From positions 387 through 64,386 of the forward strand of contig JBFIJM010000001.1 of the NCBI GenBank assembly GCA_041600715.1: a stretch of 64,000 bases of DNA. Direction: 5' to 3'. This DNA is from Candidatus Saccharimonadales bacterium. Lineage in GTDB: Bacteria > Patescibacteriota > Saccharimonadia > Saccharimonadales > 2-12-FULL-41-12. The stretch's first letter is position 1. Each line of letters begins with the position of its first letter. The notes under the pieces are model-generated. The model had not been told where the DNA came from, did no database searches, and saw only the letters and a list, made by a program, of their open reading frames with translations. The position numbers were made by a program, and so were the translations under genes. Positions 19,427-38,500 of this stretch are shown here, piece after piece.

Positions 19427-19471
19427 ATCGTACGTTGAAATTGAATAACTAAGGTGTGCAAGGAGGACGTA

Positions 19472-19945
19472 TTGAATTGCAATCGTTGCCATGCAGCCGA
19501 TACAAAGGTAATTGAGTCCCGCGAGGTGACAAACGGCAAAGCTATCCGCAGACGAAGAGTCTGCAGTAGCTGTCAGTACCGGTTTACAACCTACGAGCGA
19601 ATTGAACAGCCTCAGCTTATTGTTATAAAGAACAACAACGTTAGAGAGCTCTTCAATAGGGAAAAGTTAATTGCTGGTCTGTATCGAGCATGCGAAAAAA
19701 CACCCGTCACAAGTCTGCAGTTAGAACAACTTGTGTCTGACGTAGAGCAACAGCTTTACGAATGTGGTGAGAATGAAGTTCCTTCAACCAAAATCGGTGA
19801 GCTTGTCATGGACAATCTTTCCGCACTGGATGAAGTTGCATATGTACGTTTCGCAAGTGTCTATCGTCGATTCAAAGATATCGCTAGCTTTGAACGAGAG
19901 TTATCAGACATACGTAAACGTAAACGAGAGCTTATCGAAACGTAG
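19472..19945 (+). CDS. nrdR: Transcriptional repressor NrdR
   Basis: Zinc ribbon CNRC...CSSC followed by an ATP-cone. TTG at 19472 sits 5 nt after AGGAGG (19461-19466) and gives the canonical M.C..C N-terminus. The track GTG at 19454 is an extension. Confidence 0.9.
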   Translation: MNCNRCHAADTKVIESREVTNGKAIRRRRVCSSCQYRFTTYERIEQPQLIVIKNNNVRELFNREKLIAGLYRACEKTPVTSLQLEQLVSDVEQQLYECGENEVPSTKIGELVMDNLSALDEVAYVRFASVYRRFKDIASFERELSDIRKRKRELIET

Positions 19946-20015
19946 GCAATCTACGAGAAATTTCGATAGTTTTCCTCAACATTCAAATCAGGTGAATGGT
20001 GCGGAGAGCTGAATT

Positions 20016-20044
20016 ACATCTATATCCTAGAGACGTATAGATGT
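20016..20044 (+). promoter_or_regulatory. Inverted repeat upstream of the nrdJ promoter (candidate NrdR operator)
   Basis: ACATCTATA-N11-TATAGATGT. It ends about 4 nt before a TGACTC/18 nt/TATAAT (20072-20077) promoter and shares the CTATA..TATAG core with 19400-19426. Confidence 0.3.
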
Positions 20045-20095
20045 GAATGACTCTAACAAAAACCTAAAAAATATAATCTAAAAAGTGAGGGTATT

Positions 20096-22861
20096 ATGGG
20101 ACAAGCTACTAACTTAAGCGTAAGTAGGCTCTTTACTGAGCCGAAGACAAAAGGCTATGACAGCCTAAATTGGGTGTCGACTGATTCGGTCATTGCAAAC
20201 CCGATGACAGGTAAGAATGTGTTTGAGCAACGAGGCGTGGAATTTCCAGATTCGTGGTCTCAGAATGCGATTAATATCGTGGCACAAAAGTACTTTACCG
20301 GTACTCCTGGCACAAAAGAACGCGAAAGCTCGTTAAAAGACCTTATTAATAGGGTAGTAGACACCATAACTCGTCAAGGAATTCAGGAGAATTACTTTGA
20401 TAGCGAAAAAGAAGCTGAAGATTTTAAGGAAGAATTAAAGTACATTCTTGCGACTCAGCGTGCCGCATTTAATTCACCAGTTTGGTTTAACATAGGCGCA
20501 CCAGACCGAGCCCAGCAGGCAAGTGCATGCTTTATCTTAGGTATCGAAGACACTATGCCAGCAATCCTTAACTGGTATAAAGAAGAGGGGATGGTATTTA
20601 AGGGTGGTTCAGGCGCTGGGATTAATCTGAGCGTTATTCGTTCTTCCGTGGAATCACTAGGTAAAAGTGCCGGAACAGCTTCTGGACCTCTGAGTTTTAT
20701 GCGCGGTGCTGATGCTTCTGCTGGCGCGATCAAAAGTGGCGGAAAAACTCGTAGAGCAGCGAAGATGGTTATTCTTAACGCAGACCATCCCGACATAGAA
20801 GAATTTATTTGGTGCAAATCTCGAGAAGAAGAAAAAGCTCGCGTACTTCAGGCTAATGGCTTTGATATGAGTCTCGACGGCAAAGACATTCATTCTGTTC
20901 AATACCAGAACGCCAATAACTCGGTGCGTGTTACTGATGAGTTCATGCAGGCTGTAGAAGATGACGCAGACTGGGAGCTTAAGGCAGTGAAAGACGGCAA
21001 GACTGTGCGTACAGTTCGTGCCCGCGAATTATTCAGGCAGTTTGCAGACGCAGCATGGCGTTGTGCTGACCCAGGTATGCAATTCGACACTACAATCAAC
21101 CATTGGCACACAACCCCGAACGCAGGTAGGATCAATGGCTCAAACCCTTGTAGTGAGTATATGCACTTAGATAACTCTGCGTGTAATCTTGCCTCAATTA
21201 ATCTTCTTAAATATCTTAATGATGACGCAAGCTTCGATGTAGAAGGCTTTAAACACACAGTAGAAATGATTTTCACAGCTCAAGAAATTTTAGTTGGTTA
21301 TTCAGAATATCCAACAGAAAGCATTGGCAAGAACGCACGTGCTTATCGTGAGCTTGGACTTGGATATGCTAACTTGGGCGCGTTACTTATGGCTCAAGGT
21401 TTGCCTTATGATTCAGAAGAAGGTCGTGCGCAAGCTGCAGCTATTACAGCAATCATGACCGGACATGCTTATGCTACTAGTGCAAAAATTGCTCGCAAGA
21501 TAGGACCATTTGCTGGTTTCCATAAAGATCGAGAAGGTATGATTCGCGTGCTTAAGCAACACCGAGAAGCGGTAGACTCTATTAATCCATCGCTAGTATC
21601 CGAGAAGTTACTTAGTGCTGCTACTACTGCGTGGGACGACGCGGTAGAGCTGTCAGAGCTTTATGGTGTGCGAAACTCCCAGGCTTCAGTGCTCGCTCCA
21701 ACAGGAACGATCGGCCTTATGATGGACTGTGATACAACAGGTATTGAACCAGATCTTGGTCTTGTTAAGGTCAAGAAGCTTGTGGGCGGTGGAACGATGC
21801 ATATCGTTAACCAAACTGTCCCTCGCGCCCTAAAGGCTTTAGGTTATGACGCTCAGCAGATAGCTAAAATTGTAGAGTATATAGATATCGAAAAGACAAT
21901 TCTTGGTGCTCCAGCACTTAAGAAAGAACATGAGAATGTCTTTGCTTGTTCTATGGGCGACAACTCAATTCATTATCTAGGTCACGTGAAGATGATGTCA
22001 GCGGTGCAACCGTTCCTTTCTGGAGCGATAAGCAAAACCGTGAATATGCCAGAAGAAGCAACTATAGAAGATGTAGAAAAACTACATATCGACGCTTGGA
22101 AGATGGGCCTAAAAGCCGTAGCAATCTACCGCGACAACTGCAAGGTAGCTCAGCCTTTATCTATGGCTAAAAAAGAAGGCGCACAAGAGGCCAAGGAAAC
22201 ACCTGTTGATTCTGTTAACAATCAATATATTGTTAGGGGTGTGGTCCGCCGAGAGATGCCTAAATTCCGGAATGCTAAAACGTTCTCATTCGAGGTAGCA
22301 GGCAGTAAGGGTTACGTAACAGTTGGCGAATTTGAAGATGGCACTCCAGGTGAAGTATTTATGAAGATCGCTAAGCAAGGCTCTACCTTAGGTGGCGTAA
22401 TGGAAGCCTTGGCAGTATCTGTAAGTTATGGCTTGCAGTACGGTGTGCCTCTAAAGAGCTATGTTCACGCACTTACAAGCATGACATTTGCACCGTCAGG
22501 TATTACGGATGACGCAGAAATCCGTACGGCCACATCACTTGTCGACTATATCTTTAAGCGACTAGCTCTTAATTATCTATCATTTGATGATCTCTTAGAG
22601 TTGGGACTCGCGTCAATCGAGGATATGCCCGAAGCTCAGACTAGTTTACTAGTTGAAGCTCCGATAAAGAACGAGCCGATTCAGGCAGACACCGTGGCAG
22701 AAGCTCCAAAGCCTGTGGAGCAAAAGCCAGCAGAAACCTCTCGTCCTAAGGCAAAAAAAGACGATACGGCTCCAATGTGCTTTAACTGCGGTAATCAGAC
22801 ACAGCGTTCTGGTAGCTGTTATGTCTGCACATCGTGTGGTTCCACTACCGGCTGCAGCTAG
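20096..22861 (+). CDS. nrdJ: Ribonucleotide reductase, class II (adenosylcobalamin-dependent)
   Basis: Monomeric or dimeric class II architecture: ..NPCSEY.. active-site loop, SACNLASINL, APTGTIG, and a C-terminal CFNCG...CYVCTSCG zinc tail. Adjacent to nrdR. Confidence 0.9.
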   Translation: MGQATNLSVSRLFTEPKTKGYDSLNWVSTDSVIANPMTGKNVFEQRGVEFPDSWSQNAINIVAQKYFTGTPGTKERESSLKDLINRVVDTITRQGIQENYFDSEKEAEDFKEELKYILATQRAAFNSPVWFNIGAPDRAQQASACFILGIEDTMPAILNWYKEEGMVFKGGSGAGINLSVIRSSVESLGKSAGTASGPLSFMRGADASAGAIKSGGKTRRAAKMVILNADHPDIEEFIWCKSREEEKARVLQANGFDMSLDGKDIHSVQYQNANNSVRVTDEFMQAVEDDADWELKAVKDGKTVRTVRARELFRQFADAAWRCADPGMQFDTTINHWHTTPNAGRINGSNPCSEYMHLDNSACNLASINLLKYLNDDASFDVEGFKHTVEMIFTAQEILVGYSEYPTESIGKNARAYRELGLGYANLGALLMAQGLPYDSEEGRAQAAAITAIMTGHAYATSAKIARKIGPFAGFHKDREGMIRVLKQHREAVDSINPSLVSEKLLSAATTAWDDAVELSELYGVRNSQASVLAPTGTIGLMMDCDTTGIEPDLGLVKVKKLVGGGTMHIVNQTVPRALKALGYDAQQIAKIVEYIDIEKTILGAPALKKEHENVFACSMGDNSIHYLGHVKMMSAVQPFLSGAISKTVNMPEEATIEDVEKLHIDAWKMGLKAVAIYRDNCKVAQPLSMAKKEGAQEAKETPVDSVNNQYIVRGVVRREMPKFRNAKTFSFEVAGSKGYVTVGEFEDGTPGEVFMKIAKQGSTLGGVMEALAVSVSYGLQYGVPLKSYVHALTSMTFAPSGITDDAEIRTATSLVDYIFKRLALNYLSFDDLLELGLASIEDMPEAQTSLLVEAPIKNEPIQADTVAEAPKPVEQKPAETSRPKAKKDDTAPMCFNCGNQTQRSGSCYVCTSCGSTTGCS

Positions 22862-22920: not shown

Positions 22921-23107
22921 GTGTATTTTGAATTTTTTATCTGCAGTGCTCAGGCGCGGTACCGTATGTACCGCTTCTTGCGCGCTTCGCTAAGAAAATC
23001 CAAACTACACTCAAGCGTGGACTTCTAGCTCGTCTCGGGAGCTTGAGGCTCAACTAATTCTTATTTCCTAATTCCCAGTTCCTATGAATTCCTATATACT
23101 AGTTCTT

Positions 23108-23422
23108 ATGAAAGTGGTGGTGCTTTATAGGCCAAACTCAGAGCACGGAAGAACGGTAGAATCATATGTCCGGGATCTAGAACGTGCTCATTACGGATGC
23201 AAGGTAGAAATGGTGAGTTTAGACACTAGAGATGGTGCGTCTACTGCCAGCCTTTATGACGTTATGCAATATCCAGCAATCCTTGCCTTGCAAGATAATG
23301 GACAACTACTAAAGAACTGGCAGGGTGAAAACCTGCCACTTATGAATGAAGTAGCCTACTATGCCAGTGGTGTTGGCAGTGGTATAATAGGCAATAGAAG
23401 CGCTTTGTCGGTCTTTGGCTAG
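23108..23422 (+). CDS. Hypothetical small protein (thioredoxin-fold-like, no CxxC)
   Basis: The ATG at 23108 lies 7 nt after TATACT (23095-23100). The beta-alpha-beta-like start MKVVVLYRP is only a weak resemblance. Confidence 0.45.
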   Translation: MKVVVLYRPNSEHGRTVESYVRDLERAHYGCKVEMVSLDTRDGASTASLYDVMQYPAILALQDNGQLLKNWQGENLPLMNEVAYYASGVGSGIIGNRSALSVFG

Positions 23423-23430
23423 ACAAATAA

Positions 23431-23600
23431 GTGGCTATCAACCACGAATGCCGAGGAAAGAAAAGTAAAATCTTAGTAGACTCCTCCGGGTAAGCCCGTC
23501 ATAGCAGTAAATAAGTGCCGGTAAGAACAAGCTCTTACTCTGGAAACTGGATGGTATCTCCCGAAAGGGATCCAGTAGCTAGAATAAGAGCTTTTTATTT
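23431..23600 (+). promoter_or_regulatory. T-box-like leader (Ile specifier) with antiterminator-type bulged helix and terminator
   Basis: Hairpin GTGG-CTATCAA-CCAC with AUC-A in the loop (23435-23441). CTGGA[TGGTATC]TCCC-GAAA-GGGA-TCCAG (23547-23575). Outer 9-bp helix AAGCTCTTA/TAAGAGCTT (23529-37/23585-93) followed by a T-tract. TGGTATAAT box at 23380-23388. Confidence 0.55.
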
Positions 23601-23616
23601 GGAAAGGAAAGCAAGG

Positions 23617-26475
23617 ATGAAATACCAAAAGGGAACCCGCAGGAGAGCGATCGAGTACGAGAAAGATCTGGTTAAATACTGGAAAGAAAATAAAATATTC
23701 GAAAAATCAATTGAGCAACGTCCGGCTGACAATGCCTTCGTATTTTATGATGGTCCACCGTTTATATCAGGCGCGCCACATCACGGAACACTGCTCTCCA
23801 GTATCGTAAAAGACGCTGTGCCTCGTTATCAAACAATGAAGGGTAAACGGGTAGAGCGTGTTTGGGGTTGGGACTGTCATGGTTTGCCGGCTGAGCGCTT
23901 CACCGAAAAGAAGCTGGGTATTCATTCTAGACAAGAGGTACTGGAGTATGGAATCGAAAAGTACATCAATGCGACTCGCGAGAATATGGTTCAAACTAGC
24001 GGTTTATGGGAAGAGTATGTTGATCGTATTGGTCGATGGGTGGACTTTAAGGGTGCCTACAAAACCATGGATAAAGACTACATGGAGTCCATTTGGTGGG
24101 CTTTCAAAACTCTTTATGAAAAAGGCAAGATCTACGAGGGTGAGAAAGTGCTCATGTACTGTACGCTCGACGGAACGCCGTTATCAAAAGCCGAAGTTAC
24201 TATGGACGCCGGGGCTTATCAGGACGTTACCGACCCAAGTGTTTATATAAAATTCAAACTTCAAGATGGCAGGTATTTGCTTGCTTGGACGACAACCCCT
24301 TGGACATTACCGGCCAACACTGCCGTTGCAGTTAATCGTGATGTAGATTATGTAGAGGTTCAGATTGATGGTCAGTCATTAATCCTTGCTAAAGACCTGG
24401 TCGAAAAAGTTATGACAGATGAGAAGCACCAACCTCTAGACTATAAAGTTGTTAATGAATTTAGGGGAGAAGATCTAGTGGGGCAAACATATGAGCCCCT
24501 TTTTGTGGATAGGGGTGAGAACGCTCACAAAGTTTGGCATGCTGACTACGTTGAGATCGAAGCCGGTACTGGTATTGTGCACTTAGCGCCAATTTACGGC
24601 GAAGAAGACTTTGAGCTTGCAAAACATGAAGGCTTCCCAGCGGTGCATGTTCTAGACCAGAATGGATTTTATACTGAGGGTGAATGGGAGGGTCAAAATG
24701 TTTGGGAGGTTAACAAACCGATAGCTAAAGAGCTGAAAGAGCGGGGTATTGTTTGGAAAATTGAGTATTACAGGCATAGTTACCCTCACTGCCATAGGTG
24801 CGGTACGAAGCTTATGTATCGAGCACACCCAAGTTGGTTTATGGACATCGATAGCCAGCGTGAAAAAATGCTAGAAGGTAACGAATCCATAAATTGGTTC
24901 CCTAAACACTTAAAATACGGCCGATTTGCAAAGACAATTGAACAAGCTCCAGATTGGAATATTTCTCGTGATCGGTTTTGGGCAACGGCAATGCCAGTAT
25001 GGAAAACAGAGTCAGGCAAGACGAGAGTTGTTGGAAGCTACGCCGAATTAAAAGAACTTTCTGGAGTTGAGCTAGAAGACTATCATCGCCCATGGGTAGA
25101 CGATGTAACCTTCGAGATCGACGGGGAGCTGTATACTCGCATAGATAAAGTTATGGACAGTTGGTTTGAGGCTGGATCTATGCCTTTCGCGCAACTCCAT
25201 TATCCGTTCGAAAATAAAGAAAAGTTTGAGGCAAATTTCCCTGGCGATTTCATTGTTGAGTACATCGCTCAAACAAGAGCGTGGTTCTACTATATGCATG
25301 CTGTCAATATTGCTTTGTTTGACACGTTCTCTTTTAAGAACGTAATTACTACAGGTACACTTGCCGGGAATGACGGTCGTAAGATGAGTAAAAGTCTTAA
25401 TAATTTTACTGATCCAAATGAACTAATGGACAAGTACTCGGCCGATGCTGAGAGGTTTTTGCTACTCTCTTGCCCAGTCTTAAATGGTGAGGACTATTCA
25501 TTGCAAGACAAGGAAGTTGGTGACGTTGCTCGTAAACTCTCCATGATATGGAACATGTACGACTTCTTCACGATGTATGCCGAAGTAGATGGCTGGGAGT
25601 TTACTGGTGATTTATCAGATCCATCTGAGAAGCTTACAAACCTTTTGGATATATGGATAGTTAGCAGGGTTCATCAACTGACAGGTCACATTGAAAAATA
25701 CATGGACGTGTATGATATACCGAATGCCCTAGAGCCAGTTTTGCCGTTCCTGGACGATGCGAGTAACTGGTACGTTAGAAGAAGCCGTCGGCGATTTTGG
25801 AAGTCAGAAGATGATGGTGACAAGAATGATGCATATAAGACTCTCCACTACGTATTAGTGAGACTTTCGCTTGTACTAGCCCCATTTACGCCATTCTTAG
25901 CAGAGGAGCTTTACAGGAAGCTTACAAACGGCGAGTCAGTACACTTAAATAACTGGCCAGAAATAGGCGCGATAGACGATCAACTGGTAGACCGAATGAG
26001 CGCAGTGCGTAATGTTGTGACAACTGGTCTTGCATGGAGAGCAAAACAAAACCTTAAAGTGAGACAGCCTCTTAGTTCGGTTTTTGTTCAACCGGAAGTT
26101 TTTGATCTTGTTAGTAGTTTTGAAGAGATAGTTTTAGAAGAATTAAACGTTAAGAGACTCGAGCAAGACTCTTCTTTGCCCGATGATCAAGTTGTTTTGG
26201 ACGCTGTGATTACAAAAGAGCTTAAAGCTGAGGGTTATATGCGTGAGATTGTGCGACATATTCAAAATGCCCGAAAAGAGGCTGGGCTGGAAGTAGATGA
26301 CAGAATAATAGTCTCGCTCGAATCGAACCACCCTGAACTTGCCGAGGCAATCATAACACACCTATCTGTTATCCACTCAGAAACGCTTGGTACCGCCGGG
26401 AAAGTTGTAAATGGTCATAGCGTAGTGGCTGTTGTAGACGGACAGGAACTTAAGATTGGTCTTGAGAAGGCTTAG
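23617..26475 (+). CDS. ileS: Isoleucyl-tRNA synthetase, type 2 (eukaryote-like)
   Basis: PPFISGAPHHGTLL (HIGH region of type-2 style), KMSKS, and the CP1 editing region. The ATG at 23617 follows GGAAAGGAAAGCAAGG. The track GTG at 23515 runs through the leader RNA. Confidence 0.93.
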   Translation: MKYQKGTRRRAIEYEKDLVKYWKENKIFEKSIEQRPADNAFVFYDGPPFISGAPHHGTLLSSIVKDAVPRYQTMKGKRVERVWGWDCHGLPAERFTEKKLGIHSRQEVLEYGIEKYINATRENMVQTSGLWEEYVDRIGRWVDFKGAYKTMDKDYMESIWWAFKTLYEKGKIYEGEKVLMYCTLDGTPLSKAEVTMDAGAYQDVTDPSVYIKFKLQDGRYLLAWTTTPWTLPANTAVAVNRDVDYVEVQIDGQSLILAKDLVEKVMTDEKHQPLDYKVVNEFRGEDLVGQTYEPLFVDRGENAHKVWHADYVEIEAGTGIVHLAPIYGEEDFELAKHEGFPAVHVLDQNGFYTEGEWEGQNVWEVNKPIAKELKERGIVWKIEYYRHSYPHCHRCGTKLMYRAHPSWFMDIDSQREKMLEGNESINWFPKHLKYGRFAKTIEQAPDWNISRDRFWATAMPVWKTESGKTRVVGSYAELKELSGVELEDYHRPWVDDVTFEIDGELYTRIDKVMDSWFEAGSMPFAQLHYPFENKEKFEANFPGDFIVEYIAQTRAWFYYMHAVNIALFDTFSFKNVITTGTLAGNDGRKMSKSLNNFTDPNELMDKYSADAERFLLLSCPVLNGEDYSLQDKEVGDVARKLSMIWNMYDFFTMYAEVDGWEFTGDLSDPSEKLTNLLDIWIVSRVHQLTGHIEKYMDVYDIPNALEPVLPFLDDASNWYVRRSRRRFWKSEDDGDKNDAYKTLHYVLVRLSLVLAPFTPFLAEELYRKLTNGESVHLNNWPEIGAIDDQLVDRMSAVRNVVTTGLAWRAKQNLKVRQPLSSVFVQPEVFDLVSSFEEIVLEELNVKRLEQDSSLPDDQVVLDAVITKELKAEGYMREIVRHIQNARKEAGLEVDDRIIVSLESNHPELAEAIITHLSVIHSETLGTAGKVVNGHSVVAVVDGQELKIGLEKA

Positions 26476-27968: not shown

Positions 27969-30900
27969 ATGGACGAACACCAAAAACAAACACCAATGAC
28001 AGATATTACCCCAGGCGTAAGGCGGGAGGGGTTTGCTGTAATTGATAGGAAGATAAGCGTCAAGAAAGCTCCAGTGAGACTATCTGTTGATGAAAGAGGT
28101 AGTGTACCAGCCTCTGGTGAGATAGATGCAACTTCAGAAGATTTATCGTTAGGCTCCAGCTCTACAGCGACAGTTGTAGTGCCAAACCCTGTAGCCTCAA
28201 ACGTACCTACACCTCAGGCGATGTACGACGGGCATAATTTTGCAGGCAAGGGATCTAAGAAAAGAATTATTTTAACCATTAGTGCGTGGATGGGTGTGTT
28301 TGTACTCATCTCAGCAATTATTTTTGCCGTTGTTTCATCTAGAAGTAATGACGAAAATGCAGAAAACAAAGTTCAACCAATAACTTCAATACCTAAAGAA
28401 GATCTGCTTAGTGCATCACAAAAAGACTTTGGAACACGTAGCGAAGTAACTATAAATGGTCCTCTCCAGGTAAAGAATAAATTTACAATCAGTCCGTCCG
28501 AAAAGCCATTGAATCCACAAGCAGGTCAGATATATTTTGATGGTAAAACAAAACAATTTGTATTTTATGATGGAGAAGGTTACCAAACTCTCATAACTAA
28601 TCAGCTGTCTGATCAGTTCGGTTCATTGAGTCGGGCAGGACCGGGGACGGGGTTGTCACTTAGTGGCACTCAACTTAATAATAGCGGAGTTTTAAGCATT
28701 CAAGGACAATCGGGTAACCTGACAATAACAGGTGGGCCCGGTTTAGTCGTTAACGGCCTACAACTAGCCAATACCGGCGTGCTGTCTGTTCAAGGAACGG
28801 CCGGTAATGTTGTATTTAGCGGTGGAGCAGGTATTGCAGTAAACGGAACACAGATTAGCAATACAGGCGTCTTGTCAGTCGTCGGTACCGCTAACCAGGT
28901 TAGTGTTAGCACGGCAGGTGGAGTAGTGACCGTTTCACTGCCGCAGAACATCTCGACTAATTCATCGCCACTATTCAATGGGCTCAACTTAACCAATGCT
29001 TTATCGGTAGCAAACGGTGGCACAGGATCAAGTGCTATCAACTTTGTTGCAAACGGTTCAGTATATTACGACGGAACACGACTTGTTTCTACTTCTGCAC
29101 CAGCTAGTGCTGGCCTTTGTCTGATTAGCACCGCTGGCGCCCCAGCGTTTGGCACATGTCCTGGCTCCAGTGCGAGTATAGGTGGTTCGGGAACGCCTGG
29201 TGCTATCCCCTACTTTGACTCTGCCAACACAATCGCTGATTCAATAATGGTACAATCCGGATCGACAGTAACAGTTGCCGGAACCTTAGATGCTACATTT
29301 CTAGTGGGAGATGGCTCCAGTGTCACTAATGTTGATGCAACAGCTTTGAGTGGTCAGGGTTCTGCATATTATAGAAACGCATCCAATATAAATAGCGGTA
29401 TACTCGCCACTGCTTACGGCGGCACAGGCTTGGCAACGACCCCTGCTAACGGACAATTATTAATTGGTAACGGATCTGGCTATAGCCTTGGTACAATCGG
29501 TAATGGTGGCGGATTAACTGTAACTAACGGAGTCGGTACTATCAGTGTTGCGGTAAATTATGGTTCAACCGCCAACACCTCGGCAGAAGGTGATAAACAG
29601 ATAACTGTAACTGCTGGAACTAACTTAACTGGTGGCGGTGTTGTGACAATTGGTGCTGGCGGAACACTGACACTGAATGTTGCGAGTAGTCCAACCTTCT
29701 CGGGTAATTTAAGTGTTCAGGGTGGGTCCGCTACACTTGGCACTGTGTCACAAGCAGGTTCATTAGTGCTAAATGACGGTGCAGGCAATATTGGGACTCT
29801 CCAGGTGGCTTCGCTTGGGCAAGGAACTATTTATACCTTGCCCGATCCAGGTGTAGCCACAGCGACCATTTGTCTAACGACCAACAACTGTGTTGGTCCT
29901 AATGGTGGTGGCGTTACTTCAACTGGAACAGCTAATAAACTAGTAATATTTAGCGGTGGCGCATATAGCCTAGCTGATTCAATCGTTACTCAGTCTTCCG
30001 GCCTTATTACAGTAGACGGTAATCTTTCTGCGACTGCCCTGCAGGGCAACGGAGCAGGATTAACTGACCTTGATGCCGGAAACATAACCACTGGTATATT
30101 ATCAATCGCACGAGGCGGTACTGGTATAAGTCTAACTCCGAACAATGGACAGCTTCTGATAGGTAATGGTACTGGTTATAGTCTAGCTACAATAACCAAT
30201 GCTGATGGCACGGTAGAAATAGTTACTGGCCCAGGTAGTATACAGATCTCGGTTCCAAGAGCTGACCAGTGTGCGACTTGTGCAGACTATACACTTAGCA
30301 ACTTAGCAGATGTAATAGCTATAAATAAATCTCTGCTACCTGCATCTGCAGGCAGTATCAGTCTCGGTGGCGCAGGATTGCCATATCAATATCTATACCT
30401 CTCAGGGGATGAAGTAGCCAATCCAGGGAGTAATTACTTTACTATTACCGGCGATGCTTCTGCTCAGCGAACAATTACCTTGCCGGATGCATCCGGTATA
30501 GTTTGTCTCGATAACGGTAACTGTGCAGGTGCGGGCGGCGGCATAGTCGGTAGTTCTGCAGGTACCACAGGGTATCTCCCAGTCTATACGGGTAGCTACA
30601 CTATAGCTGACAGTATTGTCAGTCAATCATTGGGGGTTCTGTCTGTCGGTGGAAATTTGAACGTAAGTGGTAACGTCTCAATAACTAATGGCTTGACAGT
30701 AACAAACAATATTTCTGCTGCATCATTTAATAACCTTACCCTAACCGCTCTAGCAGATGGCTTCAGCTTATTGGGTGGAACAACCTCTCGAACGCTAACT
30801 GTGCAAGGCAGTAACATTACACTTAATCAAAGCCTTCAGACAACAGACACCCCAAATTTCTCGGGCCTCACTCTTTCTAACTCCCTAGGTGTAGCCTATG

Positions 30901-33900
30901 GGGGTACTGGTATTCTCGGTGGGCCAACAGCCAACGGTCAACTGCTGATAGGATCTAGTACTGGTAACTATACACGCGCTACTTTGACAGCAGGTAGCGG
31001 AATTGTTATTACGAATTCAGCAGGCGGTATAACAGTTGCTGCGCCAACCGCGGGTACTTGTACTTCTGGTTGTGCCGACCAGTCATTGTCTAATCTTGCA
31101 GCAATAAACATCAACACAAGTTTGCTTCCTAACTCAGGCAATACAGTTAGTCTGGGTTCTCTTACTCGCCCATTCCAGAGCATTCGTCTTAATAGTACTG
31201 CTGGCGCTCAAGGATTTAATATTACAGGTACGAATGCCACCGGCACGGAGGTTACTATAGCCTTGCCAGTATTGAATGGTACCGTTGCTTTGGTGCAAAC
31301 CGCAGGTTCTAGCACTACTCAAAACGGGGATCTGAATATCGGTGGAAATATAATCGGCAATAGGTTGATTAGTGGTCTAGTCGGTACAGATGACGGTACT
31401 TCGTCTTCCAATGTAATGCTTAGAAGTGGCAATGCAAGCTCCGGGAATTCCGGCAATGTATCTATTGACTCAGGAAGCGCTAGTGGTACTGCTGGCACAA
31501 TATCCATAGCAACTGTTAATGCGAGCGGATTGACTCTTGGTCGAGCTGGAGTGCAAGTTTCTATTCCTGGCGGACTGAACACTCAAGGTAGCGATATTGT
31601 TAGCCAAAACGGTAACCTTAACCTAGGAACTGGGAGCATCACATCTGGTAATATCAATGGACAGACTATTAGTAGTAGTGCAAACTTCACTGGTACAGTT
31701 CTAATACAAGGAGCTGATGCTCTTACTTTAGGAACTTCTGGAGCCAACACAGGTGCGATCATTTTCCGTAACCTTAACGGTAGCAACAGTGTGAAGCTCA
31801 AGGCATCCGACCTTAACCCAGGATCCGATATAACATTTACTCTACCAAATGCGCTACCAGGAAGCACCGAGTGTGTGACGCTCAGCGCTACTGGCCAATT
31901 TGGATCACAAAACTGTAGCGGTGGCTTAACCGGTAGTGGTAGTGATGGCACATTCTCAATATTTACTTCAGGTGGTACTGCATTGACTGACTCTATACTG
32001 TCTCAGAGTAGCAATACCCTAACTATTCAAGGCTCAAGCAGTAATCTAGTCGTAAGTGGCGGAACATCTGGTGGATTGGGTAATAACTCCATATCACTAG
32101 GAACAGCATCGTCACGTACTGGTGGAATCAACTTTTATAATGAAAGTAACGCCAACGTAGCATCGATAGTAAGTGGAACATCTGCCAATAGTTACACGCT
32201 TATTCTGCCGACCGATCTAGATACAACCGGAAAGTGTCTAAACGTCGGCGCAGGTGGACAAATCGGCTACTTCTCATGTGTATCTAGCGGTGGCGGTGGT
32301 GGAACAGGAGTAACTGGAAGTGGTACGACTGACAGGTTAGTACGATGGACAGACGGCGGTTTATCTGTTGTAGGCGATTCAGTAGTTCGAGACAACGGAA
32401 CACGTGTCGGTATCGGTATTGCACCTGATGCAACTGCAGTGTTTGTAGTTGGAAGTAGTGGCGCATTCAAGGTAACAAATGCAGGCGCCTTGACCTCTGC
32501 CGGAATTACGAATAGTTCTGGAGGTATAGATAACAGCAGTAGTGGTATCACAAATACCGGAGCAATTTCTGGGGCTACAAGTGTCAGTGCCTCAGGCTTA
32601 ATCTCTACTAGCGCAAATAATCAGGCGCTTACACTCAGTGGTGCGCCGACTAATAGCGCAACGCAATCACTTCTACAGATTGGTAGTGCGATTGTGGGCG
32701 GTAATACATCGGCAAACGGTGGAACATACATAGGACTAAACGCGCCAAATAGTGGTGCTGGCTCTGTTGCAGATTTAATAAATCTTCAGAAGAACGGGGT
32801 CAGTCTCTTTAGGGTTGCAACAACCGGCGCCGTCACTGCAGGGACTTACAATAGTTTGTCATTACAAGCAAATGCCACAGGCTTTCAGGTTGCTGGCGGT
32901 ACGGCATCAAGACAGTTGACTGTAACAGCGAATGCTACGATTGATCAAAACTTGGCTGTAGGTAGTAACGTAAGTTTTGGTACGCTGACTCTAAGTACGG
33001 CATTAAGCCCAGCTAACGGTGGTACCGGAATCGCAGGTGGACCTACAGCTGATGGTCAACTACTCATTGGTTCTGCCGGAGGCACATATACACGGTCTAC
33101 CCTTACAGCTGGAAGCGGGATCAATATCTCTAATGCATCGGGCTCGATAACTATCAGTTCACCAAGTGCTGGATCTTGTTCTACATGTGCTGATAGACAG
33201 CTAAGCAATCTGACTGGAACCACAGCTATACCAGTAGATCTCTTGCCATCATCTGCAGGCACGATTAACATTGGCTCTGACACTGCTCCATTCAATAGTC
33301 TGTATGTAGGCACCGACGGTAACGCCTTCAGGATAACTGGCACAGCGACTTCAGATCAGACAGTGACTTTGTTTGATGCAGGCGGGCCAAGTGAAATATG
33401 TGTCAAATACAACGGCGGTGCCAACAGCAACTGTTCTGGTACCGGTGGTGGTATTACAGGTAGTGGAGCTGGCACATCGGGAACAATACCGGTGTATACT
33501 GGAAGTTATTCAATTGCTGATAGTATCTTGAGCCAGTCGGCCGGTGTAGTATCTGTAGCAGGTGGCTTAAGTGCTACTGGCGGTGTCAACTTCTCAAGTA
33601 CTCTTGCCGTAACCAATGCAGTTACAGGTGGAACTTTCAACGGGCTAACACTCACCTCAGCATCAGACGGATTCACCATAAATGGCGGTACTACTCCACG
33701 AACTCTGACAGTTCAAGGGGCAAATGTATCGATAAACCAGAGCTTACTGACATCTAGCAACGTCACATTTGCAGGAGTTACTGCATCTGGCAACCTGAGC
33801 ATTACAGGAACCAGCACACTCACTGGAGCAGTTACCGCATCGTCAATCGCTCCTCCAGCTTCAACAGCGTTTATTCTGGGTGCGAACGGTGCTGGACAGA

Positions 33901-35549
33901 CTACTAATCTTCAGGGTAGTACTATTACGTTCACTAACGGGGCTCGTACCTATGGATTCAATAGCGTTGCTTCTGGATCGCACACAATTTGTGATTCAAG
34001 TGGTAACTGCGCTAGCGCGGGCGGTGGTGTCACTACTGTCGGCGGTACTTTAAATAAATTAGCCAAGTTTAGTGGTTCGCAGACAATCGTAGACTCAGTA
34101 TTCAGTGATGATGGTACAAACGGTACAATCTCTGGGAGCTTGTCTATACAAGGAACAACCCTTTCAGGTAGCGGTGCACTGACGGTGGCTAGTACTGGTG
34201 GCGCCAACAACCTTACTCTTAACTCCGGTTCTGGCACTATTATCTTCGGTGCCAATACTTTCCAACGCACTGCAACCGGGGGTGTAACCTTCGACCTAGT
34301 TGATGTTAACCCGACTACGTTCACCGTAACAAATAGTCATGGTACTGGAGTTGCTAATCTGAGCGTGGAAGGCTCTGGCACTTTCGGTGCAGGAGTAACA
34401 TCAACTGGTGGAGTGGTAAATCTCAACGCCAGCTCAAACAACGCAACCAACATAAACACCGGTACTAGTACAGGAGCTGTCGCAATAGGTAATAGCGCTA
34501 CTTCAAGCCTGACCATCGAATCTGGCACGGGTACTACAAGTCTATTTAATGGAGCAACTGCTCACACTATAAACTTCGCTACTGGAGCGGCTTCTCAGAG
34601 TATAACAATAGGATCCATTAATACTACAAGTCTTACCAAGATCCAGGGTGGCGCAACAGGAAGTGTCAGCATCGGAGCGGTCCTGGCAGAGACTAACAGC
34701 TCAACAGTCAATATTGCAAACACGAGTAATGCAACAGGCACTCAGACGGTCAGGATTGGCTCAACCGCGAATTCTGCCAACTCCACTATTTTGCAGTCTG
34801 GATCAACCAACGGCGTTATCGTAAGGTCCGACGGCACCACTGGATTTAGAGTTCAAAATGCCAGCGGAAGTACGACTATATTTACCGTAGACAGCACCAA
34901 CTCCATAGTTACCATAGGTAGTGCCACAGGTTCACTTACAGGCAGAGACCTTGTAGTAGCAGATCTTGATGTTACAACTTCACTTCGTGTGGGTAATGGC
35001 ACAAACGGGGTGAGCTTCAATGATGCGACATCTGGTAAGTTCCGCCTCAGTGGTACAGCTCGTAACTCCAAGAAACTCTTGTTAACCGCAGAATATGCAG
35101 GCTTAGTTCTTGACCCAGACGGCAGTAACAACATAGGGTCTGCTACCAGTGCATTCGATGCAACCCAAAGGGAAAGCTACTATAACTGGAGTACAACTCA
35201 AGCGACAAATCAGGACTATGACTTTGTTGTTCAGGTGCCACTACCGAGCGATTTCGACGGACTTGATGGCAGTAATCCGATAACCATCGACCGCTGGACA
35301 AGCAATACTACTAACGGAACTATTACAGCCACACTTTTAGATACAGCTGGCTCAGCCGTAATTAACTGGAACTCATGTTCGCTTACCCCAGGTAGTTCAA
35401 GTACTTGGACAACTACAACTGGATGTTCGATATCAACAGGAACCTTCACTGCTGATGGAGTAATTACTCTACGGATAAAACTTCAGGCACCACAGAACGG
35501 CAACACAAGAATCGGTAATATAACAATAAATTACTTAAGTAAGTTCTAA
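27969..35549 (+). CDS. Giant (2526 aa) membrane-anchored surface protein built from concatenated tail-fibre-like modules
   Basis: Uninterrupted 7.6-kb ORF with an N-terminal TM (ILTISAWMGVFVLISAIIFAVV). Seven CysX5-13Cys plus Gly-rich junctions, each followed by a G..(N)KL..F(S/T)G....(A/V)DS.(V/L).Q motif. Four GGTG..NGQLLIG units. Three C..CAD..LSNL....LLP..G...(L/I)G units. A beta-sandwich-like C-terminus. Confidence 0.85.
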   Translation: MDEHQKQTPMTDITPGVRREGFAVIDRKISVKKAPVRLSVDERGSVPASGEIDATSEDLSLGSSSTATVVVPNPVASNVPTPQAMYDGHNFAGKGSKKRIILTISAWMGVFVLISAIIFAVVSSRSNDENAENKVQPITSIPKEDLLSASQKDFGTRSEVTINGPLQVKNKFTISPSEKPLNPQAGQIYFDGKTKQFVFYDGEGYQTLITNQLSDQFGSLSRAGPGTGLSLSGTQLNNSGVLSIQGQSGNLTITGGPGLVVNGLQLANTGVLSVQGTAGNVVFSGGAGIAVNGTQISNTGVLSVVGTANQVSVSTAGGVVTVSLPQNISTNSSPLFNGLNLTNALSVANGGTGSSAINFVANGSVYYDGTRLVSTSAPASAGLCLISTAGAPAFGTCPGSSASIGGSGTPGAIPYFDSANTIADSIMVQSGSTVTVAGTLDATFLVGDGSSVTNVDATALSGQGSAYYRNASNINSGILATAYGGTGLATTPANGQLLIGNGSGYSLGTIGNGGGLTVTNGVGTISVAVNYGSTANTSAEGDKQITVTAGTNLTGGGVVTIGAGGTLTLNVASSPTFSGNLSVQGGSATLGTVSQAGSLVLNDGAGNIGTLQVASLGQGTIYTLPDPGVATATICLTTNNCVGPNGGGVTSTGTANKLVIFSGGAYSLADSIVTQSSGLITVDGNLSATALQGNGAGLTDLDAGNITTGILSIARGGTGISLTPNNGQLLIGNGTGYSLATITNADGTVEIVTGPGSIQISVPRADQCATCADYTLSNLADVIAINKSLLPASAGSISLGGAGLPYQYLYLSGDEVANPGSNYFTITGDASAQRTITLPDASGIVCLDNGNCAGAGGGIVGSSAGTTGYLPVYTGSYTIADSIVSQSLGVLSVGGNLNVSGNVSITNGLTVTNNISAASFNNLTLTALADGFSLLGGTTSRTLTVQGSNITLNQSLQTTDTPNFSGLTLSNSLGVAYGGTGILGGPTANGQLLIGSSTGNYTRATLTAGSGIVITNSAGGITVAAPTAGTCTSGCADQSLSNLAAININTSLLPNSGNTVSLGSLTRPFQSIRLNSTAGAQGFNITGTNATGTEVTIALPVLNGTVALVQTAGSSTTQNGDLNIGGNIIGNRLISGLVGTDDGTSSSNVMLRSGNASSGNSGNVSIDSGSASGTAGTISIATVNASGLTLGRAGVQVSIPGGLNTQGSDIVSQNGNLNLGTGSITSGNINGQTISSSANFTGTVLIQGADALTLGTSGANTGAIIFRNLNGSNSVKLKASDLNPGSDITFTLPNALPGSTECVTLSATGQFGSQNCSGGLTGSGSDGTFSIFTSGGTALTDSILSQSSNTLTIQGSSSNLVVSGGTSGGLGNNSISLGTASSRTGGINFYNESNANVASIVSGTSANSYTLILPTDLDTTGKCLNVGAGGQIGYFSCVSSGGGGGTGVTGSGTTDRLVRWTDGGLSVVGDSVVRDNGTRVGIGIAPDATAVFVVGSSGAFKVTNAGALTSAGITNSSGGIDNSSSGITNTGAISGATSVSASGLISTSANNQALTLSGAPTNSATQSLLQIGSAIVGGNTSANGGTYIGLNAPNSGAGSVADLINLQKNGVSLFRVATTGAVTAGTYNSLSLQANATGFQVAGGTASRQLTVTANATIDQNLAVGSNVSFGTLTLSTALSPANGGTGIAGGPTADGQLLIGSAGGTYTRSTLTAGSGINISNASGSITISSPSAGSCSTCADRQLSNLTGTTAIPVDLLPSSAGTINIGSDTAPFNSLYVGTDGNAFRITGTATSDQTVTLFDAGGPSEICVKYNGGANSNCSGTGGGITGSGAGTSGTIPVYTGSYSIADSILSQSAGVVSVAGGLSATGGVNFSSTLAVTNAVTGGTFNGLTLTSASDGFTINGGTTPRTLTVQGANVSINQSLLTSSNVTFAGVTASGNLSITGTSTLTGAVTASSIAPPASTAFILGANGAGQTTNLQGSTITFTNGARTYGFNSVASGSHTICDSSGNCASAGGGVTTVGGTLNKLAKFSGSQTIVDSVFSDDGTNGTISGSLSIQGTTLSGSGALTVASTGGANNLTLNSGSGTIIFGANTFQRTATGGVTFDLVDVNPTTFTVTNSHGTGVANLSVEGSGTFGAGVTSTGGVVNLNASSNNATNINTGTSTGAVAIGNSATSSLTIESGTGTTSLFNGATAHTINFATGAASQSITIGSINTTSLTKIQGGATGSVSIGAVLAETNSSTVNIANTSNATGTQTVRIGSTANSANSTILQSGSTNGVIVRSDGTTGFRVQNASGSTTIFTVDSTNSIVTIGSATGSLTGRDLVVADLDVTTSLRVGNGTNGVSFNDATSGKFRLSGTARNSKKLLLTAEYAGLVLDPDGSNNIGSATSAFDATQRESYYNWSTTQATNQDYDFVVQVPLPSDFDGLDGSNPITIDRWTSNTTNGTITATLLDTAGSAVINWNSCSLTPGSSSTWTTTTGCSISTGTFTADGVITLRIKLQAPQNGNTRIGNITINYLSKF

Positions 35550-35551
35550 TC

Positions 35552-38500
35552 ATGAGCGAGCGTGAATACGAACTGATTAAACGAACTATACTCATCGAGA
35601 AACGAACGTTCTTGAATAATTCTAATAACGTCCAGAAATTTGTAAATAATAATAGAGTTAACAAAGTGTTTAGTCATATTTTGAGTCGTCATCCTCGACC
35701 ATTTATGTATTTATCACTTTGCTTGTTGCTACTATTTCAATCTGTTGGCATGGCTCTACTGCCTTCGCTAGCTAACCCTGACAAACTCTACAACCTCTCT
35801 GATGAGACCCAACAATTGACAGGCAAGACCAACGATACTTTATCCAAGAGACTAACCTACGACCCAGAAAAGAAGATCTACCAGTACAACAAAGAAGCCG
35901 CTCCAGCCGGAAACCCAGGTAGTCCAGAAGAAGCAATGGCTTCTGCTCAGCAAAGCCAAAAGGTAGGCGGAGGAGCTGACAACTACACTGTAGACTTATC
36001 CGTTGACCCAACCAAAGGCGTCACTGTCCGCGATGCTACCGATACTTCTGGCTCACTAGCCATCAGTATGGTTCCTCAGTTTGGAGCCCGAGAAGGTAAA
36101 CAAAAAGACGGACGTATAATCTATCCACTAAAAGGTAAGAAAGGTCACCTAGTCTACAGTGTTAAAGCCAATGGTCTCAAAGAAGATATTGTCCTAAGCG
36201 AAGAACAAGGCAATGACCTAGACTTTAGCTACAAACTAAACCTCCCAGAAAGCCTAGAAGCTAAACTACTAGATAACGGCAGTATTGGTATATACTCTGC
36301 CGACACCACACTGTTTGGTAACATCTCCTTTGGCTCAGACCAAGACAGAGATAGGGTAGAGAAAGCCAGAAAGAACGCCGAGAAGAACAACCTAGTCTTC
36401 AATATACCCGCACCAGTAGTAGTCCAAGCCAACAAAGATAACCAAACAAACAGCAAAGATAACCAACAAGACACCAACGAAACCAAGAAAGACAACACAG
36501 TAAAGTCTAAGTTTGAACTAAACGGAGACACCCTAACCGTCAAAACAACCGGACTAAAGAACGCTAACTACCCACTAAGCATAGACCCATCCGTAGCCGT
36601 AACCAGTGCCAGTGACTTCGCTAAAGGCAACCTAGAAGACGGCATAGAGATAGACACCACCAACAACCAGATAAAGAGAGCAGGACTGACTGGGGGGAGT
36701 GTGGGGTCGTGGACGACGGATGGCGGAACAAGCTTTAGTGGTACAAGAACATACGCCGGAACGGTGGCATATAACGGCTATCTTTATCTAATTGGCGGAT
36801 CAGGATCTGGAGGTTATCGGACAGATACTCAATACGCCCCCATAGATCCAAGTGGAGAGATAGGAGCTTGGACTACCAGCGCGTACTCTTTCACAACTGG
36901 TAGAGATAGATTTATGGCTGTGACATACAATGGCTACATTTACATCATGGGTGGCTTTGCTTCCAGTACTTACTACAGGGATGTGCAATACTCAAAAATA
37001 CAGTCAGATGGCTCAATAGGAGCTTGGTCGTCTCTTGCTAGTTTCAATACTCCAGCGCGGTTTGGACACGCAGGCTTTGCATACAACGGCTATATCTATA
37101 TTACTGGCGGGTGTACAGCTGATAACATCATATCTTGTACTGCCTGGACTACGAATGTCCAGTATGCTTCCATCAATGCGGACGGAACACTTGGAGCTTG
37201 GACAAATAACCCCAACAGTTTTCTCAGCGCTAGGTATGGTCACTCAGCCACCGTCTACAACGGTTATATGTACATCATGGGGGGAAATATACAGGGAGGA
37301 AACGCAAACATCATTCAGTACGCATCTATAAATGCTGACGGTAGCGTAGGTACGTTCGCTGTTAGTGCTAACAACTACACGACTAACAGGCAGGAGCACA
37401 CCACTATAGCACTAGCTGGATATCTATACGTCATGGGGGGGAACAACGGTGGTTCATTCCTTAATACTGTTCAGTATGCACCGATTAATGCGGACGGAAG
37501 TATCGGAGTCTGGTCGACATCCACAAATTTCACTACAGCACGCTTCGGTCATGCAAGCATCGCATATAATAACAAGTTGTATATCATTGGAGGTTGTAAT
37601 GCTGGAGCATGCAGTAGCTGGCTTGGAGACGTACAGTATACGTCGATTGATCCGGCGGGCGTTACCAGCACCTACTCTACAACTACATCTTTATCGTCCA
37701 CTAGGTTCGGACACGCATCGGTAACTTACAACGGATACTTATACGTCGTAGGGGGGAATGTAGGCGGTTCATTCAGCGGTAATATCTCCTATGCTCCAAT
37801 AAATTCTAACGGAACTGTTGGCGCTTGGGCTACCGCAGGAACATTTACCACAGCCAGATATCTTTTGACTGCCGTAGCCTATAACGGCCACATGTATATT
37901 ATGGGTGGAACAGACGGAACATACAGGAACATCACACAGTATGCACCCATAAACTCGAACGGCACTCTAGGTACCATAAATAGCACCACGACAACGTTTG
38001 CGGGTGTAAGATCTACTTTTGCATCGGTAGCATACAATGGATATATGTACGTTACTGGTGGCTATAATGGCACAACAAGCATAAGCAGTATCCAATATGC
38101 GCCTATAGATAGCAACGGTAATATAACAACAACTTGGACTGCAGGCACAAACATGTCTGCAAACATCAACGGTCACGCAGTCGTAGCATTTAACAACAAG
38201 CTATATCGCCTAGGAGGAAACAACAACGCGACCGTAGAATACCTTACTATTAATAGCGACGGATCTCTTAGCGCCAGTTGGACTGCTACGACAAGTTTTA
38301 CAACCGGTCGCACACAGTTCTCGGCTACGTTCGACAAGGGTTATATGTATATCTTTGGCGGAGGTAACAACAGTGGCACTTACTATAATGATGTTCAATA
38401 TGCCCTGGTAAATGCTGACGGTACTATCAGCGCTGGTGCATGGAAAACAACACAGAGCATTACCACGGCCCGAGATTTGATGGGGGCTGTGATCCACGGC

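Follow-up and report, generated by a model that had tools for sequence, protein, structure and literature searches.

The 64,000-nt stretch of DNA analysed here (hereafter the window) comes from a Saccharibacteria (TM7) genome, in which ileS, the gene coding for isoleucyl-tRNA synthetase (IleRS), is preceded by a leader of about 200 bases (23400-23600), and the question raised by this locus is what such a leader does. T-box riboswitches are the textbook example of a messenger RNA that reads a transfer RNA (tRNA), and the accepted rule is that uncharged tRNA stabilises one helix of the leader, A1, against a terminator or a sequestrator. A first-pass annotation of the window had proposed a T-box-like attenuator sensing tRNA-Ile, with an AUC codon in a hairpin loop and a possibly non-canonical switching logic. 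Comparison with related leaders supports the former, as the AUC and the purine that follows it are conserved on a covarying stem, and also lends support to the latter. We consider it probable that the leader is a T-box riboswitch specific for tRNA-Ile, controlling ileS by transcription attenuation with a terminator that competes with Stem III. As read from the shared strands of the leader, this predicted competition involves Stem III and not helix A1 as in canonical T-boxes.

Recurrence of the leader upstream of ileS

An IleRS protein search with one genome per species returned 589 relatives, of which the best 80 (60-81% identical) were taken for comparison. These loci (L001-L080) belong mostly to Saccharibacteria (TM7, Patescibacteria), the others being labelled only Patescibacteria or "bacterium". 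A covariance model built from 44 full-length leaders has one match in the window (23428-23597, 134.9 bits, E = 2e-33), with no second match in the 64 kb up to E = 10. It has exactly one match per locus in 75 of the 80 loci, always on the same strand and upstream of ileS, and none in 549 kb of other DNA from contigs with a TM7 16S signature. Judged from these matches, the recurrence of the leader upstream of ileS in 75 of 80 related loci is far beyond chance, and the genes upstream of the leader vary among the 75 loci. The counts of features given below are over 76 leaders including that of the window, unless another number is stated. The fold of the whole leader has a z score of -3.3.

Around 20 relatives harbor one or two genes between the leader and ileS, implying that the leader heads an operon. 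The inserted genes code for a GNAT acetyltransferase (identified by Pfam in L073 and judged by sequence similarity in at least eight loci), a protein with a weak cupin match, a CAP/SCP-family protein, a GDSL lipase, and small acidic open reading frames (ORFs) of 43-72 amino acids (aa). These genes would be co-regulated by the charging of tRNA-Ile. Examples are found in the following loci:

L073, 2465-3001: leader region with inserted genes
L006, 2651-3001: the same
L014, 2389-2985: the same
L030, 1376-3001: the same

A different neighbourhood is seen in L076 (Candidatus Nanogingivalis gingivitcus, 2523-2701), where genes for tRNA-Thr(UGU) and tRNA-Tyr(GUA) lie directly 5' of the ileS T-box leader.

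Decoding and discriminator elements

The elements of the sensing half of the leader are, from 5' to 3':

23400-23451, + strand: whole Stem I, with base helix, inserted hairpin, kink-turn (K-turn)-like motifs, upper helix and 7-nt loop
23437-23440, + strand: specifier AUC (Ile, 23437-39) and purine A (23440) in the apical 7-nt loop
23453-23486, + strand: Stem II, with a short top; register from the covariance-model alignment
23487-23505, + strand: Stem IIA and pseudoknot IIB, with F-box-like CCCGU
23513-23517, + strand: RAG linker AAGUG, an instance of the "RRRxG" motif that precedes Stem III
23518-23543, + strand: Stem III (ON-state helix), CCGGUAAGA (23518-26) with UCUUAC..CUGG (23533-43), loop 23527-32
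23544-23545, + strand: AA linker joining Stem III to A1, with G-A-A unchanged throughout the alignments
23546-23576, + strand: T-box core (A1, bulge, A2), CUGGA[UGGUAUC]UCCC-GAAA-GGGA-UCCAG at 23547-75

[quoted passage not shown] The upper helix (GUGG/CCAC, 23431-34/23442-45) is 100% paired and three of its four pairs covary, one of them being U-A in 22 leaders and C-G in 20. The apical loop, CUAUCAA (23435-41), presents the specifier AUC in 76/76 leaders, and a purine follows it in 75 of them (A in 71, G in 4), the remaining one having C. Below the upper helix, UAA (23428-30) lies opposite GA (23446-47) in what by eye is a GA/GA motif, and from published T-box anatomy we infer a K-turn at this place. 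The base helix consists of 3 bp (GCG 23400-02 with UGC 23449-51), and by eye its triplets covary in the 15 insert-free relatives (GAC/GUC, UCC/GGA, GCC/GGC, GGC/GCC, AAC/GUU). A test of this helix at fixed offset catches 15 of 71 leaders, namely the insert-free ones, so that the base helix and the K-turn stay readings by eye. Most relatives carry an inserted Stem I hairpin of varied sequence at the same spot. In the window, this hairpin (23404-09/23422-27, UUUGUC...GACAAA, 23404-23427, + strand) replaces a bulge of 3-4 nt of the insert-free relatives.

The lower helix of Stem II (GAGGA 23453-57 with UCCUC 23482-86) is 97% paired, with double changes in all five pairs. It is followed by an internal loop, AAGAAA opposite UAGUAGAC, which has the form of a loop-E/S-turn type motif (GAA/AGUA), the columns GAA and A.UAGA being invariant in the alignment. 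Stem IIA (CGG 23487-89 with CCG 23496-98, within the hairpin CGGG-UAAG-CCCG at 23487-98) is 96% paired. The IIB pseudoknot is formed in the window by GC 23494-95 with GC 23504-05, and its partner lies 5 nt downstream of IIA. In relatives it covaries by eye (UCGA/UCGA, UCGG/CCGA, UCAG/CUGA, CCAG/CUGG, CGCU/AGCG), and only 61% of the cells are paired in a single fixed register because two length registers exist.

The discriminator half begins with the RAG linker, whose A, A, G and G columns are invariant or nearly so (AAG in 67/76 leaders and GAG in 8/76, together 75/76). Stem III follows (100% and 90.7% paired, with double changes in seven of eight pairs) and is predicted at the same place in all of 60 folded leaders; over the full 76, about eight have none or a weak one. 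The pairing of GUAAGA (23521-26) with UCUUAC (23533-38), which the annotation had listed as an alternative fold, corresponds to this conserved and covarying stem, flanked by RAG...G and AA. In the literature, an RRRxG-Stem III-AA motif is described, with a role in sensing the tRNA's 3' end.

In the T-box core, helix A1 (6 bp, 23546-51/23571-76) is 99.7% paired and four of its six pairs covary, the two pairs adjacent to the bulge being invariant. Helix A2 (23559-62/23567-70, closed by a GAAA loop) is 95% paired, with covariation. The pair of A2 beside the bulge is G.U in 29, U-A in 15, A-U in 8 and G-C in 7 of 60 leaders. The 7-nt bulge is UGGUAUC in the window (23552-58), as in three leaders, and UGGUACC in 66/76. 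It is UGGNACC-like in 76/76, the variants being UGGUAUC, UGGAACC, UGGUAAC and UGGCACC. Its U, G, G, A and last C are invariant, as is the G of RAG, and these residues match the contacts published for the ileS T-box of Mycobacterium tuberculosis, in whose structure the last C of the bulge is the pairing partner of the RAG G and the A of the bulge is stacked.

No tRNA gene was found in the window or in 60 ileS loci scanned, and tRNA-Ile was taken from metagenomic contigs picked by a TM7-specific 16S signature, 29 of which (from the L081-L160 set) were scanned. The 16S probe used was TM7-905. On 26 of the 29 contigs, a tRNA-Ile(GAU) gene is present beside tRNA-Ala downstream of the 16S gene. The annotation had asked for a discriminator A73, and 26/26 of these genes end in A73-CCA, a result at the level of the phylum and from genomes other than that of the window. 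ACCA and UGGU are complementary (U being fourth in the bulge of 71/76 leaders), as are the GAU anticodon and the specifier AUC, so a tRNA that appears to match both ends of the sensor is encoded in the phylum. Among the TM7-signature contigs searched, none carries both tRNA-Ile and the leader. The fourth position of the bulge is A (UGGA) in L016, L043 and L055 and C (UGGC) in L049 and L067. These five leaders do not match the A73 of the tRNA-Ile(GAU) genes found, and would call for a tRNA-Ile whose base 73 is U or G, unless the mismatch is tolerated. On the TM7-signature contigs (for example L081 5305-5631 and L123 5459-5816), the 16S gene is often followed by the tRNAs Ala(UGC)-Ile(GAU) or Ala-Val(UAC)-Ile, in an order that differs from contig to contig. 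The order with Ala before Ile differs from the usual bacterial Ile-Ala.

Putative terminator, proposed switch and competing explanations

Downstream of the RAG linker, the following features make up the expression platform, and the first of them overlaps Stem III:

23529-23593, + strand: terminator hairpin (predicted OFF state), P0 23529-37/23585-93 and P1 23539-43/23579-83 enclosing intact A1-bulge-A2
23592-23600, + strand: U-tract TTTTTATTT, directly after the OFF helix
23604-23619, + strand: Shine-Dalgarno AAGGA (23604-08) and ATG (23617), both free in either predicted state

The hairpin 23529-93 has a predicted stability of -31.9 kcal/mol (z = -6.2), which none of 200 shuffled sequences reaches. 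In the minimum-energy fold, the 5-bp helix P1 links the 9-bp P0 to A1; P0 is 88.7% and P1 85.4% paired, with double changes in nine of ten pairs. When 60 hairpins are aligned, the OFF structure (P0, P1, A1, A2) is 92.9% paired against 73% in shuffled alignments, and 18 of 21 pairs show double changes. The ON structure with the pseudoknot has 93.1% of its cells paired against 72% when shuffled, with double changes in 31 of 38 pairs. For both structures, 0/500 shuffles match, and controls in which the strands were slid give 27-52% (OFF) and 31-48% (ON). RNAalifold on a plain MAFFT alignment also recovers Stems I, II, IIA and III, A1 and A2, with compensatory changes in 27 of 34 pairs. The elements from which the annotation had built its proposal, i.e. 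the hairpins 23431-45 and 23487-98, the two-helix element 23547-75, the 9-bp helix and the GUAAGA/UCUUAC pairing, were all found in place. Its description of a terminator helix capped by an antiterminator-like element also holds, as A1, bulge and A2 covary and are retained inside the hairpin. As for the terminator itself, the helix was retained and the details were amended: the tail becomes UUUAUUU when two U are assigned to the helix, a 6-bp reading of A1 is possible, and P1 is added.

The 5' strand of the terminator (23529-43) is made of the loop and the 3' strand of Stem III, forming a 14-bp base (P0 and P1), and its 3' strand (23579-93) is similar to that on the 5' side of Stem III. The three strands are CCGGUAAGA / UCUUAC..CUGG / CUAGA.UAAGA in the window, and they co-vary in relatives, for example as CUAAAAGAA / UUCUUUUGG / CCAAAAGAA or as CUUUUGAG / CUCAAAGG / CCUUUGAG. 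As Stem III and P0/P1 use a common strand and each covaries with it, both alternative helices are under selection; they are mutually exclusive and must form at different times. A run of at least four U comes right after the helix in 75/76 leaders. This U-run, together with a free Shine-Dalgarno sequence and ATG, points to transcription termination as the simplest readout.

About 66 of the 76 leaders, including that of the window, share the overlap of Stem III and terminator with A1-bulge-A2 kept. About eight (L003, L017, L024, L043, L055, L058, L061, L075) have no clear Stem III. In these, the 5' strand of the terminator begins at or beside the RAG linker and stops before the AA-A1 junction, a position suggesting that the OFF state sequesters the RAG linker itself. 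L074 (2761-2974) is the sole leader of the 76 with a canonical terminator formed from the 3' strands of A2 and A1. L057 (2784-3001) lacks a U-run; pairing is possible between its Shine-Dalgarno region and the 5' half of the T-box, a hint that this leader may act on translation.

From these arrangements we infer tRNA binding, termination, and a step in which docking competes with invasion. The decoding module (Stem I with AUC, Stem II S-turn, IIA/B) would bind the GAU anticodon, as in the actinobacterial ileS T-boxes with ultrashort Stem I, and the discriminator (RAG, Stem III, AA, A1, UGGU bulge, A2) would pair with uncharged tRNA-Ile at its free ACCA end. The first parts to be transcribed and folded would be Stem III and the T-box core. 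With uncharged tRNA-Ile bound, Stem III would be stacked on A1 with the purines of RAG and AA docked, keeping the incoming strand from invading the Stem III/A1 junction, where the nucleotides of it that emerge first (P1, 23579-83) have to dislodge the base of Stem III, and the polymerase would clear the U-tract. With charged tRNA or none, Stem III would be undocked and displaced, P1 and P0 would extend A1 coaxially to the U-tract, and transcription would stop. The variants without Stem III fit the same principle, the RAG linker being what their terminator sequesters. [quoted passage not shown] By analogy, this behaviour lends physical plausibility to the proposed switch.

A T-box could also prevent termination in another way, the bound tRNA sterically hindering the formation of the hairpin or its entry into the RNA exit channel, or slowing the closing of P1/P0, with Stem III serving a structural role only. 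This would suit the presence of A1, bulge and A2 in both states, and a mechanism independent of Stem III must work in the approximately eight relatives that lack a clear one and keep the terminator base round the T-box core. We nevertheless regard it as unlikely, because about 66 of the 76 leaders build the 5' strand of their terminator base from precisely the loop and 3' strand of Stem III, with covariation in both helices, which is the signature of strand exchange. Moreover, in the leaders without Stem III the terminator strand starts at or beside RAG, which argues for competition on the segment from RAG to AA rather than for steric bulk.

Regulation of translation, alone or in addition, with an incidental U-tract, would bring the leader closer to the ultrashort-Stem-I T-boxes described so far, which act on translation, and the pairing of the Shine-Dalgarno region in L057, a leader without a U-run, points in this direction. 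For the family as a whole it is highly improbable: at least four U directly follow the helix in the window and in 75/76 leaders, the hairpin of the window ends before the Shine-Dalgarno sequence and ATG, which the predicted OFF state leaves unpaired, and the genes between leader and ileS in around 20 relatives suit control of operon transcription, not masking of the ileS ribosome-binding site. That there is no tRNA sensor at all, the structures being the terminator of the upstream gene (the ORF 23084-23422 has none of its own) next to a structured leader unrelated to it, or a leader to which IleRS or some other protein binds, could be argued from the failure of the Rfam T-box model, but is scarcely credible given that AUC, UGGN bulge, RAG, AA, loop-E and pseudoknot are all conserved in canonical order, that linkage to ileS is strict in 75 loci despite varied upstream genes, and that a promoter-like site lies immediately 5' of the leader.

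Several observations weigh against a tRNA-Ile T-box acting by attenuation through Stem III. Some concern the window itself, where the IIB pseudoknot is weak (2 bp), Stem III alone is weak as well (-7.4 kcal/mol, z = -1.2), the bulge is UGGUAUC and not UGGUACC, and the first pair of A2 is U-A rather than the G.U of the steric sieve. According to the literature, transcriptional T-boxes generally require a long Stem I with an elbow-binding platform, and around 10/76 relatives have other arrangements of the platform. Simple hairpin-plus-U terminators in the window are not significantly enriched (21 against 14.5 +/- 4.3 and 17 against 14.4 +/- 4.1), so the use of intrinsic termination by this organism is assumed. 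It is also not self-evident that the tRNA would favour the ON state alone: the T-box bulge is exposed in the predicted OFF hairpin, which the tRNA might stabilise too, and the answer to this objection draws on published work in which binding of the 3' end requires Stem III and the RAG linker. The tRNA-Ile evidence, too, comes from other genomes, on contigs chosen via a 16S probe.

Finally, neither the window nor any of 16 relatives reaches the gathering threshold of the Rfam T-box model (RF00230), and two leaders searched in isolation have no T-box match even at E <= 10. This failure is attributed to the ultrashort Stem I; the authors of TBDB likewise required a dedicated model for the Ile T-boxes of Actinobacteria. 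The element is covered by no Rfam family, and the leader thereby exposes a blind spot of the Rfam T-box model. Low-score Rfam matches to microRNA and long non-coding RNA families on the leader were taken as chance matches caused by its long hairpin. The annotation had named a low covariance-model score together with a lack of covariation in relatives as grounds for giving up a T-box; the Rfam score is indeed low, whereas covariation is abundant, and the T-box assignment is kept.

Setting of the leader and comparison with known T-boxes

The gene and the promoter-like site that frame the leader are:

23617-26475, + strand: ileS, type-2 isoleucyl-tRNA synthetase (Pfam tRNA-synt_1, Anticodon_1, DUF5915; type from PDB matches)
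23361-23388, + strand: promoter-like site, ATGCCA, 16-nt spacer, extended -10 TGGTATAAT at 23380-88

The IleRS of the window matches 8c8u, 1ile and eukaryotic cytoplasmic IleRS in the PDB with 600-686 bits, 1ffy with 296 and 8c9e/8c9f with 282-289. We take the top matches (8c8u, 1ile, cytoplasmic IleRS) to be type 2 and 1ffy and 8c9e/8c9f to be type 1, and on this basis the protein of the window is assigned by similarity to type 2, the eukaryote-like kind, in agreement with the annotation. The start of ileS is ATG 23617, the relatives all beginning with MKF or MKY at the aligned ATG. An N-terminal extension from GTG 23515 was ruled out, the conserved start being this ATG with a Shine-Dalgarno sequence before it, and a leader-peptide attenuator was discarded on the same two features. 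The extended -10 box had been recognised already in the annotation and was confirmed by a promoter scan (TATAAT with an upstream TG, 10/12 matches over both boxes), which places the predicted transcription start around 23396. By eye, TATAAT-like boxes lie at a comparable distance 5' of the leader in relatives.

The annotation had also set the ileS leader against an essentially leaderless lysS and proS. The short distances stand, lysS (58404-59927) starting 28 nt after its upstream ORF and a class-II aminoacyl-tRNA synthetase gene (55837-57093), the putative proS, 25 nt after its own. Neither gene has a T-box-like match with the leader covariance model.

The ORF 23084-23422 (+ strand, 112 aa) has no Pfam match and crosses the predicted promoter of the ileS leader into the first hairpin of the leader. 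Its tail may be fortuitous read-on, as a homologous ORF in L044 ends around 20 codons earlier. Just 5' of this region, 19454-22861 (+ strand) harbors the gene of an NrdR repressor and then that of a B12-dependent (class II) ribonucleotide reductase, which includes a TSCPD domain. Further 3', past ileS and rplU, lie an ORF of 2526 aa without Pfam match (27969-35549, + strand) and one of 1493 aa with many Kelch repeats (35552-40033, + strand). At the start of the window, an ORF of 926 aa (251-3031, + strand) carries Peptidase_S74, a domain that serves endosialidase and tail-fibre proteins as intramolecular chaperone and is typical of phage tail fibres.

Judged by their conserved elements, the sensing parts of the leader are those of a bona fide T-box, in which a decoding module of actinobacterial type is joined to a putative terminator and the switch would act on Stem III rather than on A1. 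On balance, we favour the view that the Saccharibacteria possess a distinct T-box class, combining an ultrashort Stem I with an intrinsic terminator, in which strand exchange takes place on Stem III (or on the RAG linker), A1 is never unwound, and tRNA-dependent docking of Stem III and RAG decides the outcome; the elbow platform would then be no general requirement for co-transcriptional action. This terminator wiring is not described for the well-studied T-box family, although a prior description is possible. Likewise, we found no paper on a T-box in Saccharibacteria, Patescibacteria or the candidate phyla radiation (CPR), in a search that did not cover key T-box surveys, so that an earlier description may exist.

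The leader family is conserved across a phylum of ultrasmall episymbionts, with A1 kept in both predicted states. If confirmed, it would be a natural test case for the single-molecule finding that Stem III and the RAG linker dock with uncharged tRNA only, and would indicate that an ultrashort Stem I is compatible with a decision taken during transcription. It would also extend T-box regulation to the Patescibacteria, whose gene regulation is little known, and provide a compact native regulatory part of approximately 200 nt for a group in which genetic tools are just emerging.

The closest known systems are the ileS T-boxes with ultrashort Stem I of Actinobacteria (M. tuberculosis, M. smegmatis, Nocardia farcinica; PDB 6UFG and 6UFM, as cited in the literature), which precede the same gene, a type-2 ileS, in a phylum other than the Saccharibacteria (Patescibacteria/CPR). 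Like them, the leader presents AUC in the apical loop of a short Stem I without an elbow-binding platform, their K-turn having a putative counterpart here. The register of Stem I is that of N. farcinica (C14, A19), the loop of the insert-free relatives starting at position 14 and the purine after the codon standing at position 19. The S-turn of Stem II, the IIA/B pseudoknot, RAG (GAG/AAG), Stem III, A1, the UGGNACC bulge and A2 are also common to both. The actinobacterial T-boxes are, however, translational: a sequestrator helix masks the Shine-Dalgarno sequence, and its formation breaks the antisequestrator. In the saccharibacterial leader, a U-tract follows the predicted OFF hairpin, the ribosome-binding site is free, A1 and A2 are kept, and it is Stem III that is consumed.

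With the canonical transcriptional T-boxes of Firmicutes (Bacillus subtilis tyrS, glyQS; RF00230), the leader shares a codon-like specifier, a UGGN bulge, a discriminator with Stem III, A1 and A2, and the readout by an intrinsic terminator upstream of an aminoacyl-tRNA synthetase gene. It differs from them in the absence of their long Stem I with its distal double T-loop platform. The bulge-adjacent pair of A1 is A-U in 60/60 saccharibacterial leaders, whereas it is G-C in the AGGGUGGNACCGCG consensus. In canonical T-boxes, the 3' halves of A1 and A2 pair downstream in the terminator or sequestrator and uncharged tRNA stabilises A1, whereas in the saccharibacterial leader the base of the predicted terminator pairs a strand of Stem III and A1 would never be broken.

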